Shown here: positions 4,150-38,189 of the stretch, one piece after another
Layout of the letters: the number at the start of each line of letters is the position of its first letter
Numbering within the stretch: position 1 is the first letter of the stretch
NCBI RefSeq assembly: GCF_057098645.1
Contig: NZ_CM169472.1
Reading direction: 5' to 3' (one strand)
Length of the DNA stretch: 64,000 nucleotides
Made by a program: the position numbers and the translations under genes
The notes under the pieces: generated by a model
What the model was told of the DNA's origin: nothing
Databases searched by the model: none
What the model saw: only the letters and a program-made list of their open reading frames with translations

Positions 4150-4842
4150 ATGCTGCGCGCATTTGCCCGCCTTCTTCTCCGTATTTGTTTTTCTCGCCGG
4201 ACTCTAAAGATTGCCTGCTTACTGTTACTTGTGGCAGGAGCGACCATTTTTATCGCCGATCGCGTAATGGTCAACGCCAGCAAACAGCTGACCTGGAGCG
4301 ACGTCAACGTCGTTCCGGCGCGTAACGTGGGCTTATTGCTGGGGGCCAGGCCGGGTAATCGCTACTTTACCCGACGTATTGATACCGCAGCAGAGTTGTA
4401 CCACGCCGGAAAAGTGAAATGGCTGTTAGTCAGTGGCGATAACGGACGTAAAAATTACGATGAAGCATCAGGTATGCAGCAGGCTTTGATCGCTAAAGGC
4501 GTACCGGCGAAAGTGATCTTCTGCGACTATGCCGGTTTCTCAACGCTTGATTCGGTAGTGCGTGCCAAAAAGGTGTTTGGGGAAAACCATATCACTATTA
4601 TTTCGCAAGAATTTCATAACCAACGCGCCATCTGGCTGGCAAAACAATACGGCATCGATGCTATCGGGTTTAACGCACCAGACCTGAATATGAAGCACGG
4701 TTTTTATACTCAGTTACGGGAGAAACTCGCCAGAATCAGCGCGGTGATTGACGCGAAAATCTTCCATCGTCAGCCAAAATATCTCGGGCCGTCGGTCATT
4801 ATTGGTCCGTTTAGTGAGCATGGTTTTCCAGCGCAGAAATAA
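4150..4842 (+). CDS. ygjQ: YgjQ, DUF218/ElyC-family membrane-anchored protein
   Basis: 230-aa ORF with N-terminal TM segment. Confidence 0.85.
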
Positions 4843-4920
4843 TGCGTATCCGCGCACGTCGAAGATGAAAAAGGCGTGCTACATTGACGGCAGAATCCCT
4901 TTATGGAGTATCCACGCGTT

Positions 4921-5907
4921 ATGATACGTTTCGCTGTGATTGGTACGAACTGGATCACTCGCCAGTTCGTCGAGGCCGCCCATGAGAGCGGTAAATACAA
5001 GTTAACCGCCGTTTATTCCCGCAGCCTTGAACAGGCCCAGCATTTCGCCAATGATTTTTCTGTCGAGCATCTGTTTACGTCGCTGGAAGCGATGGCGGAA
5101 AGCGATGCCATTGACGCGGTGTATATTGCCAGCCCGAATGCCCTGCACTTTTCCCAGACACAACTTTTCTTTAGCCACAAAATTCATGTGATTTGCGAGA
5201 AACCACTGGCGTCGAATCTGGCGGAAGTGGATGCCGCCATTGCCTGTGCGCGGGAAAATCAGGTGGTGCTGTTTGAGGCATTTAAAACCGCCAGCCTGCC
5301 GAACTTTCATTTGTTGCGCCAGGCGCTGCCGAAAGTCGGCAAACTGCGGAAAGTTTTTTTCAACTATTGCCAGTATTCCTCGCGGTATCAACGTTACCTG
5401 GACGGTGAGAATCCCAACACCTTTAATCCGGCATTCTCTAACGGTTCAATTATGGATATCGGCTTTTACTGCCTGGCGTCGGCGGTGGCGTTATTTGGTG
5501 AGCCGAAAAGCGTGCAGGCAACCGCCAGTTTGCTGGCAAGCGGCGTAGATGCCCACGGCGTGGTGGTAATGAATTACGGTGATTTCAGCGTTACGTTGCA
5601 GCACTCAAAAGTCAGTGATTCTGTCCTGGCAAGCGAAATTCAGGGCGAAGCGGGATCGCTGGTGATTGAAAAACTGTCTGAATGCCAGAAAGTATGCTTT
5701 GTGCCGCGTGGCAGCCAGATGCAGGATCTCACCCAGCCGCAGCATATTAATACCATGCTCTACGAAGCAGAGCTGTTCGCTACCCTGGTGGATGAGCATC
5801 TGGTGGATCATCCGGGACTGGCGGTCAGTCGCATCACCGCCAAATTGCTGACAGAGATCCGCCGCCAGACAGGGGTGATTTTTCCGGCAGATAGCGTAAA
5901 ACAATAA
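4921..5907 (+). CDS. ygjR: YgjR, Gfo/Idh/MocA-family NAD(P)-dependent oxidoreductase
   Basis: ORF 4903..5907 trimmed to MIRFAVIGTNWI.. (328 aa); Rossmann GxGxxG-like N-terminus. Confidence 0.85.
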   Translation: MIRFAVIGTNWITRQFVEAAHESGKYKLTAVYSRSLEQAQHFANDFSVEHLFTSLEAMAESDAIDAVYIASPNALHFSQTQLFFSHKIHVICEKPLASNLAEVDAAIACARENQVVLFEAFKTASLPNFHLLRQALPKVGKLRKVFFNYCQYSSRYQRYLDGENPNTFNPAFSNGSIMDIGFYCLASAVALFGEPKSVQATASLLASGVDAHGVVVMNYGDFSVTLQHSKVSDSVLASEIQGEAGSLVIEKLSECQKVCFVPRGSQMQDLTQPQHINTMLYEAELFATLVDEHLVDHPGLAVSRITAKLLTEIRRQTGVIFPADSVKQ

Positions 5908-5934
5908 TTGTTACCGTAAAGCAGTGTAAAAGGC

Positions 5935-6190
5935 ATGTAACAGACCATTGACTGGGTGAATGGTCTGTCATACTTTGTTACCTGCAAAGGGGAGTAACTT
6001 CATTGCCGGTCGATCGTCATTACGATGTGTGAAAAATCACATCCGGTCACCGGGCAACCCGAAAGGAATACGCAGACGTATTCCTTTTTTGTTGTAAGTG
6101 AGACCTTGCCGGAAGGCGAGGTCTATGCATAAAAAGCAGCGGCTGACGTCTTCCGACGTTGGCCGTTTTTTTTATGTGTAAGGAACTTCT
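5935..6190 (+). promoter_or_regulatory. alx 5' leader (pH/Mn-responsive element, yybP-ykoY-type riboswitch; the SraF sRNA region in K-12)
   Basis: About 280 bp non-coding leader upstream of alx, ending in a hairpin plus T8 run and RBS aaggaa; identity from recollection of the K-12 locus. Confidence 0.6.
6138..6173 (+). terminator. Leader intrinsic terminator/attenuator hairpin followed by T8
   Basis: gcagcggctgacgtcttccgacgttggccg followed by tttttttt, 18 bp before the alx ATG. Confidence 0.55.
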
Positions 6191-7156
6191 ATGAATACTG
6201 TCGGCACGCCGTTGCTATGGGGCGGATTCGCTGTTGTTGTCGCCATTATGCTGGCTATCGACCTGTTGTTGCAGGGGCGTCGTGGGGCACATGCCATGAC
6301 CATGAAACAGGCTGCGGCCTGGTCGCTGGTCTGGGTGACGCTGTCGTTACTGTTTAACGCCGCTTTCTGGTGGTATCTGGTGCAAACCGAAGGTCGCGCC
6401 GTTGCCGATCCACAGGCACTGGCCTTTCTCACGGGTTATCTGATTGAGAAATCGCTGGCGGTCGATAACGTCTTTGTCTGGCTGATGTTGTTCAGCTATT
6501 TCTCCGTTCCGGCGGCATTACAACGTCGCGTGCTGGTGTATGGCGTGCTCGGGGCGATTGTTCTGCGTACCATCATGATCTTCACAGGCAGCTGGCTGAT
6601 TTCGCAGTTCGACTGGATCCTGTATATCTTCGGTGCCTTCCTGCTGTTTACCGGCGTGAAGATGGCGCTGGCCCATGAAGATGAATCAGGCATTGGCGAC
6701 AAGCCGCTGGTGCGCTGGCTACGCGGTCATTTGCGCATGACCGACACCATCGACAACGAGCATTTCTTTGTGCGTAAGAATGGATTGCTGTACGCCACAC
6801 CGCTGATGCTGGTACTGATTCTGGTGGAATTGAGCGACGTGATTTTTGCCGTGGATAGCATTCCGGCTATCTTCGCCGTGACCACTGACCCGTTCATTGT
6901 GCTGACCTCAAACCTGTTTGCGATCCTCGGCCTGCGTGCGATGTATTTCCTGCTGGCGGGCGTAGCAGAGCGTTTCTCGATGCTCAAATATGGCCTGGCG
7001 GTGATTCTGGTATTTATCGGTATCAAGATGCTGATTGTCGACTTCTACCATATTCCGATCGCCGTCTCGCTGGGCGTGGTGTTTGGCATCCTGGTGATGA
7101 CGTTTATTATCAACGCCTGGGTGAATTATCGGCATGATAAGCAGCGGGGAGAATGA
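6191..7156 (+). CDS. alx: Alx, TerC-family inner membrane protein (putative Mn exporter)
   Basis: 321-aa multi-TM ORF matching Alx/YgjT. Confidence 0.9.
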
Positions 7157-7261
7157 TCCGCTGTATATTAAGCCATTACTAGAGATAACTCATTCCAGAC
7201 AAAGGTGAGCTATTAATTATGTAATCGGCTTATAGCTCTTTACAAAAAGACCGCACGGGTG

Positions 7262-7458
7262 TTGGTGGCGTCAAAATCGCCGAAGCGTTCCCTTGCGCCC
7301 GAACCGGTAGCCGCAAGGGATAAGCTGAGGGAACCGCGCAGCGGCGATTTTGTTCGCCAGAGCCTGGGGGTGCAGGGGGCGGCGGCGATTGGCCGTCCCC
7401 TGCGCGCTCCTTGCGCCAGTGACTTTATATGGCATAGCACATTAAAGGAGCGCAACCG
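7262..7458. repeat. GC-rich nested-palindrome element in the alx-sstT intergenic region (possibly a boxC-like repeat)
   Basis: Arms ggcgtcaaaatcgccg (7267..7282) and cggcgattttgttcgcc (7342..7358); inner cccttgcg (7290..7297) and cgcaaggg (7312..7319); embedded in AT-rich flanks. Confidence 0.4.
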
Positions 7459-7711
7459 TTCTCATATTCCAAATAGTTTTGCCCATATGTTATCTAATCA
7501 GCCTTAGTAGCCAGTCCTTCCCTCTGTTTATGTCAAATAAATGTAACCATTAAGTTGCAAAACATGAGCTCTCTTTAAAATCCAGCATTTTTCGCTTCCC
7601 GAAGCTGTAACTTTCCTTATACTCGACCTTGCAAACACTTTGTTACATCCTGAAAGATGCGTCGACAGAACGCACCAGGGATGTGCGACAACACAATGAA
7701 AGGATCGAAAA

Positions 7712-8956
7712 ATGACTACGCAACGTTCACCGGGGCTATTCCGGCGTCTGGCTCATGGCAGCCTGGTAAAACAAATCCTGGTCGGCCTTGTTCTGGGGAT
7801 TCTTCTGGCATGGATCTCAAAACCCGCGGCGGAAGCTGTTGGTCTGTTAGGTACTTTGTTCGTCGGCGCACTGAAAGCTGTTGCCCCCATCCTGGTGTTG
7901 ATGCTGGTAATGGCATCTATTGCTAACCACCAGCACGGGCAGAAAACCAATATCCGTCCTATTTTGTTCCTCTATCTGCTGGGCACCTTCTCTGCAGCTC
8001 TGGCCGCAGTAGTCTTCAGCTTTGCCTTCCCTTCTACCCTGCACCTGTCCAGTAGCGCGGGTGATATTTCGCCGCCGTCAGGCATTGTCGAAGTGATGCG
8101 TGGACTGGTAATGAGCATGGTTTCCAACCCCATTGACGCGCTGCTGAAAGGTAACTACATCGGGATCCTGGTGTGGGCAATTGGCCTCGGTTTCGCACTG
8201 CGTCACGGTAACGAAACCACCAAAAACCTGGTCAACGATATGTCGAATGCCGTCACCTTTATGGTGAAACTGGTCATTCGCTTCGCACCGATCGGTATTT
8301 TTGGGCTGGTTTCTTCTACCCTGGCAACCACCGGTTTCTCCACACTGTGGGGCTACGCGCAACTGCTGGTCGTGCTGGTGGGCTGTATGTTACTGGTGGC
8401 GCTGGTGGTTAACCCATTGCTGGTGTGGTGGAAAATTCGTCGTAACCCGTTCCCGTTGGTGCTGCTGTGCCTGCGCGAAAGCGGCGTGTATGCCTTCTTC
8501 ACCCGCAGCTCTGCAGCTAACATTCCGGTGAATATGGCGCTGTGTGAAAAGCTGAATCTGGATCGCGATACCTATTCCGTTTCTATTCCGCTGGGTGCCA
8601 CCATCAATATGGCGGGCGCAGCAATCACCATTACCGTGTTGACGCTGGCTGCGGTTAATACGCTGGGTATTCCGGTCGATCTGCCCACAGCGCTGCTGTT
8701 GAGCGTAGTGGCTTCTCTGTGTGCCTGTGGCGCATCCGGCGTGGCGGGGGGGTCTCTGCTGCTGATCCCACTGGCCTGTAATATGTTCGGTATTTCGAAC
8801 GATATCGCCATGCAGGTGGTTGCCGTCGGCTTTATCATCGGCGTATTGCAGGACTCTTGCGAAACCGCGCTGAACTCTTCAACTGACGTGCTATTCACTG
8901 CGGCAGCTTGCCAGGCAGAAGACGATCGTCTGGCAAATAGCGCCCTGCGTAATTAA
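7712..8956 (+). CDS. sstT: Serine/threonine:Na+ symporter SstT
   Basis: 414-aa ORF matching SstT. Confidence 0.95.

Positions 8957-37811: not shown

Positions 37812-38189
<378 letters not shown>

Follow-up and report, generated by a model that had tools for sequence, protein, structure and literature searches.

A GC-rich palindromic block between alx and sstT matches TRIP1d, a known repeat of the RRS family, and carries an internal deletion

What is the GC-rich, palindromic block that lies between alx and sstT, and does it do anything there? We addressed this question in a 64-kb stretch of DNA (64,000 nucleotides; hereafter the window) that is identical to Escherichia coli O145:H28 genomes. 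The alx-sstT spacer spans 7157-7711; the alx stop codon ends at 7156 and the sstT ATG stands at 7712. Inside the spacer, a core at 7253-7456, on the + strand together with alx and sstT, has a G+C content of 63.2%, compared with 35.4% in the left flank (7157-7252) and 40.0% in the right flank (7457-7711). An earlier note's description of a GC-rich block of about 200 bp in an AT-rich spacer therefore holds.

Five TRIP1 repeats have been defined in E. coli, at five fixed loci (Li et al. 2024, Genes 15:236, PMC10888264), under a family name that dates from Rudd 1999. In K-12, TRIP1a is RRS-lysO and TRIP1c is RRS-dusC (PMC10888264, PMC10287960, PMC10592627). The RRS have been described by Pham et al. 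2023 NAR (PMC10287960), by Pham et al. 2024 (PMC10592627) and in a 2026 preprint (PMC13308219). They occur as a pair that brackets the Ter macrodomain, with one member ~650 kb from dif on each side. When the G-quadruplex (G4) strand serves as lagging-strand template, as at both of these sites, its folded DNA blocks polymerase and leaves a post-replication gap, onto which SSB and RecA are loaded (RRS papers).

Results

Identity of the block

The published description puts TRIP1d between the two genes in forward orientation, with 96 bp separating it from the alx stop and 255 bp from the sstT start (PMC10888264). The core at 7253-7456 matches that position exactly, to the base. We tested a TRIP1 identity by alignment to K-12 TRIP1a and TRIP1c; the alignment held, and the whole core could be aligned to both. 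Identity to TRIP1a is 90.0% over 170 nt plus 90.9% over 44 nt, and identity to TRIP1c is 90.7% over 172 nt, with left-hand segments of 44-62 nt that are 87-91% identical to the two repeats. Published identities to TRIP1a are 84-94% across TRIP1 copies and 89% for TRIP1d, and published TRIP1 G+C is 62-65% (PMC10888264), a range that includes the core. The G4 motif of the RRS is GGGGGTGCAGGGGGCGGCGG, on a single strand (PMC10592627). A pattern count found one exact copy in the window on the + strand, at 7366-7385, and none on the - strand. Homology even extends past the published left boundary of TRIP1d, where AGCTCTTTACAAAAAGACC (7233-7252, + strand) is common to K-12 TRIP1c and to elements of Kluyvera and Pseudocitrobacter. 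Because a published repeat, TRIP1d, occupies the same locus with homologous sequence, the core is already known: judged by locus and alignment, the GC-rich palindromic block is a copy of TRIP1d, a member of the TRIP1/RRS repeat family, and not a new element.

The spacer itself is allelic. A three-way alignment delimited an allele-specific segment at 7159-7527, in place of which K-12 has an unrelated sequence of ~213 bp with two BoxC/TMECO motifs. These form an inverted pair in the K-12 spacer (contig L002, 1200-1299), which is not an empty site. The K-12-type allele occurs in 2581 of 5426 complete E. coli genomes, and B2 strains (e.g. UTI89, ST131) carry a shortened version. Since K-12 and B2 carry a different repeat, filled and empty sites cannot be compared at alx-sstT. 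The spacer has at least five allelic forms, namely the BoxC pair, a BoxC remnant, TRIP1d and the two TRIP1d variants with deletions of 60 bp and ~123 bp, exchanged by replacement and not by insertion. TRIP1d probably reached the spacer inside an alternative intergenic allele. A separate Escherichia species (MOD1-EC7003, contig L047) has TRIP1d after alx, at 13941-14193. The same contig holds six REP/BIME units at 4755-5379, ~8.5 kb upstream of TRIP1d. In the window we also noted an imperfect 20-nt inverted repeat at 7541-7560/7629-7648 (70% complementary), in a region upstream of sstT that K-12 shares without change; the repeat may have a regulatory role.

Internal deletion and fold of the window copy

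The core measures 204 bp, compared with 264 bp for canonical TRIP1d. Alignment to full-length TRIP1d (NZ_CP148331) showed that it lacks 60 bp between two 8-bp direct repeats, CGTTCCCT; the full-length element has two copies of this repeat 60 bp apart, and a single CGTTCCCT is left at the deletion junction (7286-7293, + strand). The deletion takes out two inner hairpins, that is, both arms of the first Y, and leaves the second Y intact, so that the window copy has neither the length nor the double-Y fold of TRIP1d. We searched complete E. coli genomes with a junction-spanning query, counting a genome if 80% or more of the query was covered, and found the junction allele, a lineage-specific form carried by O145:H28, in 56 of 5426. 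TRIP1d of any form is present in 1903 of them (~35%).

Deletions of this kind are not confined to the window copy. Six TRIP1-family copies carry six different internal deletions with 0-8 nt of junction homology, among them the deletion already known from K-12 TRIP1b and a loss of ~123 bp from a different alx-sstT allele. Judging from the alignments, internal deletion is recurrent in the TRIP1 family, and these are six independent events. The related loci were selected for carrying the 20-nt G4 core without a mismatch, and for that reason the core is invariant and kept in every deletion variant.

An inverted-repeat search recovered, at nearby positions, the outer hairpin, nested stem and second dyad that the earlier note had described, and it added a third dyad missing from the note's list. 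The long imperfect outer hairpin (GGCGTCAAAATCGCCG ... CGGCGATTTTGTTCGCC, 7266-7358, + strand) forms the base of the first Y; its inverted repeat arms at 7272-7287/7337-7352 are 16 nt long and 88% complementary, and the hairpin corresponds to helices 1-3 of the family consensus described below, compensatory pairs included. The nested stem, TCCCTTGCG/CGCAAGGGA (7289-7297/7312-7320, + strand; 9 bp, 100% complementary), is helix 4. In full-length copies only TCCCT/AGGGA pairs at this place, enclosing two further hairpins, and after the deletion the remaining TCCCT extends into the 9-bp stem. The second dyad is a 12-bp hairpin, GCAGGGGGCGGC/GCCGTCCCCTGC (7372-7383/7392-7403, + strand; 12 nt, 92% complementary), which overlaps the G4 motif and competes with the G4. 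It is helix 10, and at pair 192-209 the window has the sole G-U among 30 aligned copies. The third dyad, a 3' hairpin with a variable AT-rich loop (GCGCTCCTT ... AAGGAGCGC, 7404-7412/7445-7453, + strand; 9 bp, 100% complementary), is helix 11 (7404-7453), with compensatory changes at 2 pairs.

We compared the predicted folding of 7253-7456 with 200 dinucleotide-preserving shuffles. As DNA the core reaches -60.2 kcal/mol, compared with -42.0 +/- 3.3 for the shuffles (z = -5.44), and as RNA -105.6 kcal/mol, compared with -84.1 +/- 4.8 (z = -4.47); in each case 0 of 200 shuffles folded as well. The full-length allele has an ensemble energy of -145.7 kcal/mol, and the published value for TRIP1d is -145.4 kcal/mol (PMC10888264).

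Conserved pairing across the family

An exact search with the 20-nt core, taking one genome per species, returned matches in Escherichia, Kluyvera, Pseudocitrobacter and one further enterobacterium, with few chance matches elsewhere. Thirty copies were aligned and a consensus structure was computed, with 62 pairs and 99.2% of cells paired. Across this sample of related paralogues and orthologues, in which the retrieval core is invariant by construction, 11 pairs changed on both sides; column shuffles gave 5.1 +/- 1.0 such pairs, and slid controls gave 0. The two-sided changes are spread over 7 of 11 helices. These counts point to selection on the TRIP1 fold at the family level, and its compensatory changes across genera are a new point. 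In each of the 30 copies the G-rich strand is predicted to fold more stably than its complement, by ~15 kcal/mol, which is weak evidence for which strand matters; neither this advantage nor the covariation can tell folded ssDNA from RNA.

We also considered a strand asymmetry drawn from G-U pairs (101 G-T compared with 6 A-C cells) and rejected it, as the count is biased by structure prediction on the + strand. The refolded complement has a similar number of G-U pairs, leaving only the advantage of ~15 kcal/mol to the G-rich strand.

Rfam searches of 5800-8000 at E = 10 gave two chance-level matches only and nothing at gathering score. Upstream of alx (5908-6190) there was no match even at E = 10, in a leader that we would presumably expect to match the yybP-ykoY / PRE family. 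The sole Rfam family above gathering score in the window is rnpB (RNase P RNA), at 37812-38188 on the - strand, with 318.6 bits.

Origin of the repeat

In Kluyvera and Pseudocitrobacter, the flanks of the copies are also conserved, and the full unit is ~635 bp long with the TRIP1 core as its right half. These units have 18-bp terminal inverted repeats, TAATGCTGGTCAGTTAAG. One unit (contig L043, 5272-5906) has 0/0 mismatches in its terminal repeats and a perfect 13-bp target duplication; another (L035, 6194-6786) has 1/1 mismatches and an 11-bp duplication with 1 mismatch; a third (L009, about 1820-2462) has 2/1 mismatches and a duplication of ~11 bp with 2 mismatches. The TAATGCTGGTCAGTTAAG ends match the K-12 IS4 ends, TAATGCCAGTCAGTTAAG and TAATGCCGATCAGTTAAG, at 16 of 18 positions, and the K-12 IS4 target duplication is 12 bp. 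The left half of the unit gives a core match to TwoAYGGAY (RF01731) of 47-49 bits on the opposite strand, and the intact ~635-bp form holds two TwoAYGGAY-like hairpin modules in opposite orientations.

Searches for the left half in E. coli found it essentially absent, with a weak partial match in 6 of 5426 genomes. The only notable one, in E. coli CT29 (924899-925024; H131), covers 40% of the query at 77% identity and lies near the TRIP1a (lysO) locus; it may be a fuller relic. Beside the window copy, GTTATCTAATCAGCCTTA at 7489-7506 (+ strand) agrees with CTTAACTGACCAGCATTA at 13 of 18 positions and is a candidate, suggestive only, for the decayed right terminal inverted repeat of an IS4-type MITE; a match of this quality turns up in 2% of random 150-nt windows. 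Its distance from the core-end GCGCAAC is 32 nt, compared with 26-29 nt in intact units. Around the window copy and K-12 TRIP1a/b/c, searches for a left repeat or a target duplication returned background-level matches only, so that the window copy does not show the full set of two 18-bp ends and an 11-13-bp duplication. Transposon ancestry of the window copy is suggestive on these alignments, and an IS4-type miniature transposable element is the copy's probable ancestor.

For the family as a whole, we give equal weight for and against the view that an IS4-mobilised MITE gave rise to the TRIP1/RRS repeats by truncation and domestication and that its intact form is still multiplying in Kluyvera and Pseudocitrobacter, with the alx-sstT copy as a non-domesticated, decaying insertion relic. 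The TRIP1/RRS repeats have been presented as conserved structural sequences of the chromosome outside every transposon category. According to the introduction of PMC10592627, the repeat belongs to none of the usual categories, and in the RRS text searched, PMC10592627 included, the word stem 'transpos' is absent. A MITE origin, as a reading of the family and not of the window copy in particular, seems not to have been proposed in those papers.

Several observations on individual contigs accompany this survey. In Kluyvera, many copies stand at the extreme ends of contigs (L014-L020, L028, L032, L034, L037, L044, L045); the repeat evidently breaks short-read assemblies, and the true Kluyvera copy number is probably above 7-8 per genome. 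At 6649-6695 of L035, a run of G, N and C falls exactly at the expected G4 motif and hairpin. This looks like a sequencing or assembly failure and fits the reported difficulty of sequencing cloned RRS. A 583-bp contig labelled Bacillus sp. (L052) carries a full-length TRIP1 beside the 3' end of putP, and its PutP matches E. coli PutP 100% over 32 aa, so it is almost certainly Escherichia contamination. Taken as such, its sequence demonstrates a full-length form of the putP locus, whose TRIP1b carries a deletion in K-12. Finally, a metagenome-assembled contig (L008) holds two inverted TRIP1 copies, at 1-134 and 422-686, ~300 bp apart.

Orientation relative to replication

We determined which strand of the element serves as template for the leading strand. 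In the window, Chi sites number 14 on the - strand against 6 on the + strand, KOPS divide 3 to 1 in the same sense, and GC skew is -0.019; together these signals place leading-strand sequence on the - strand. Coordinates from the identical genome RM9872 put oriC, which lies between mnmG and mioC, at 4.544 Mb, whereas the element is found on the + strand at 3.8235 Mb. Forks therefore cross the element from high to low coordinates, which makes the + (G4) strand the leading-strand template at alx-sstT and not, as at the RRS, the lagging-strand template. The element lies 720 kb from oriC on a 5.39-Mb chromosome and does not flank the terminus. In K-12 coordinates the alx-sstT locus is at 3.24 Mb, compared with 0.915 and 2.229 Mb for the RRS, and it does not occupy a paired position flanking Ter. 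K-12 TRIP1c lies on the same replichore as the alx-sstT element, in the opposite orientation.

Discussion

We consider it very probable that the alx-sstT element is a decaying TRIP1d paralogue that is not a programmed gap trigger and that probably descends from an IS4-type MITE. The earlier note had held that identification as a known repeat family without further function would refute its reading of the block. The family is indeed known, but the second half of that statement fails, as the paralogues have a demonstrated DNA-level function.

Other readings of the block need to be weighed against this one. It could act as RNA, within the alx 3' UTR or the sstT 5' UTR or as a TwoAYGGAY-type sRNA that binds CsrA through GGA loops, and the earlier note had offered a structured RNA among its options. 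Full-length copies align to the whole TwoAYGGAY model (RF01731), a motif for which CsrA binding has been proposed (Weinberg et al. 2010, PMC2864571). Their hairpin loops read CAUGGAUG and ACAGGGAY, and alx reads into the G4 strand. The CsrA SELEX consensus is RUACARGGAUGU, and two loops, ACAUGGAUGU and ACAGGGAUGU, resemble it. The covarying pairing and the better fold of the G4 (sense) strand in all 30 copies are in keeping with such a role, but covariation serves folded ssDNA equally well. Full-length E. coli copies score 30.6-33.1 bits, under the gathering score of 43 that one Kluyvera copy exceeds (44.6 bits, with lax filters), and the window copy, from which the 60-bp deletion removed both GGA loops, has no match to the model even at E = 10. 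Orientation to the upstream gene is inconsistent across the family (TRIP1a and TRIP1b antisense, TRIP1c and TRIP1d sense), and we found no promoter-like or terminator-like site on the + strand of 7157-7711, either as an alx terminator or as an sstT promoter. The link to CsrA finds no support in CLIP-seq tables, whose gene entries for dusC and ybjE carry no peaks, and neither CsrA nor Rfam comes up in the papers on TRIP1 and RRS. Covarying pairing makes a structured RNA conceivable for the family, whereas the option is unsupported for the window copy, which has lost its two most RNA-motif-like hairpins; altogether, we hold an RNA role here to be quite unlikely. That the block encodes small proteins is scarcely credible. 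An 82-aa ORF (7259-7507, + strand) and a 71-aa ORF (7240-7455, - strand) overlap and span the element, and PGAP annotates a 'hypothetical protein' there in a few genomes. However, neither ORF has an NCBIfam match, related copies differ by 1-nt indels as well as internal deletions, and conservation tracks base pairing and not codons. The indels and the missing family match mark both ORFs as artefacts of the GC-rich repeat, as the earlier note had supposed. A BoxC (PIT/TMECO) or REP/BIME element would likewise be GC-rich, palindromic and intergenic, and the K-12 allele of this very spacer holds BoxC motifs. Yet the BoxC/TMECO consensus, CCCTCNCCC N3-6 GGGNGAGGG N3 GGGNGAGGG (PMC4666352), has 0 matches in the 64-kb window against 2 in the K-12 allele, our positive control. 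The Rfam model naRNA4 finds nothing in 5800-8000 at E = 10, whereas it detects the REP arrays of L047 at 69-75 bits. These consensus and model tests refute both classes, leaving them next to no probability; the note's boxC-type option was mistaken, and its exclusion of REP/BIME was sound.

Two further alternatives grant the family assignment and give the copy an activity of its own. It might be a currently mobile MITE, in that the core lies inside a ~635-bp unit with 18-bp IS4-type ends and 11-13-bp duplications in Pseudocitrobacter and Kluyvera, with 7-8 matches per Kluyvera genome, often at contig ends. We judge this very unlikely for the window copy. E. coli copies sit at five fixed loci (PMC10888264), and the left half of the unit is missing from E. 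coli apart from the six weak partial matches. With no left end and a right end decayed to 13 of 18 positions, the copy cannot serve a transposase that needs two ends. Alternatively, it could be a working third RRS, programming gaps at alx-sstT and playing a part in chromosome topology in the strains that have it. Its G4 motif is exact, and the RRS authors report additional RRS in some species. Ectopic RRS work wherever they are inserted if the G4 is on the lagging-strand template, and inverted RRS in vivo give no RecA or SSB peak (PMC10592627); at alx-sstT, however, the G4 strand is the leading-strand template. A 2026 single-molecule study found that an inverted RRS still yields lagging-strand gaps through its C-rich strand, less often, and that the C strand triggers gaps in about 66% of encounters in vitro (PMC13308219), so some activity at alx-sstT is possible. 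Against a third RRS stand also the site, 720 kb from oriC and not flanking Ter, the presence of the element in only ~35% of E. coli genomes and the loss of 60 of 264 bp from the window copy. We regard this alternative as quite unlikely.

Orientation, position, patchy distribution and the deletion lead us instead to a decaying TRIP1d paralogue, and we infer that the alx-sstT copy is not a programmed gap trigger and is essentially passive. At most, its C-rich strand would be a weak obstacle on the lagging strand, and the copy may supply homology through which it rarely rearranges with other TRIP1 copies; between TRIP1a and TRIP1d, rare rearrangements are on record (PMC10888264). That ~35% of E. 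coli and a separate Escherichia species keep TRIP1d could mean that it is retained for a reason.

As a published element at a published locus, the alx-sstT finding itself matters little. Its value lies in a natural experiment: an additional RRS-like sequence, in a non-native orientation, is present in about a third of E. coli strains, among them O145:H28 and BL21, the latter with TRIP1d at full length, and some lineages carry it with defined internal deletions of 60 or ~123 bp. These alleles could be used to ask which parts of an RRS, and which orientation, gaps need in vivo. If the IS4-type ends are confirmed, the RRS family would have to be seen as a mobile element that has been domesticated, instead of a genome-structural sequence made for its purpose, and the ends would suggest that part of the Rfam family TwoAYGGAY in gamma-proteobacteria is MITE-borne.

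The alx-sstT copy can be set beside several known systems. Like the intrastrand-triplex repeats BoxC/PIT/TMECO (PMC4666352), it is GC-rich, intergenic and prone to local deletions, and those repeats occupy the same spacer in K-12-type strains; the sequences are unrelated, and the triplex consensus is absent from the window. Full-length TRIP1 shares with TwoAYGGAY (RF01731, PMC2864571) a long outer stem, two adjacent hairpins and AYGGAY-like loops, whereas E. coli copies stay below the gathering score and the window copy is without both hairpins. With IS4 and IS4-derived MITEs, the Pseudocitrobacter and Kluyvera relatives have in common IS4-like ends and 11-13-bp duplications. They differ in having no transposase gene and an interior unrelated to IS4, and the window copy keeps only a putative, decayed right end. 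The resemblance to RRS-lysO and RRS-dusC comprises ~90% identity, an identical 20-nt G4 motif and the same hairpins downstream of the deletion. Unlike these functional RRS, where the G4 strand is the lagging-strand template, the copy presents it as the leading-strand template; it lies neither 650 kb from dif nor beside Ter, is 60 bp shorter and occurs in only about a third of strains. From the published TRIP1d (PMC10888264) it departs in length, 204 bp instead of 264 bp, and in its collapsed first Y, and with TRIP1d it shares locus, orientation, sequence and G+C.
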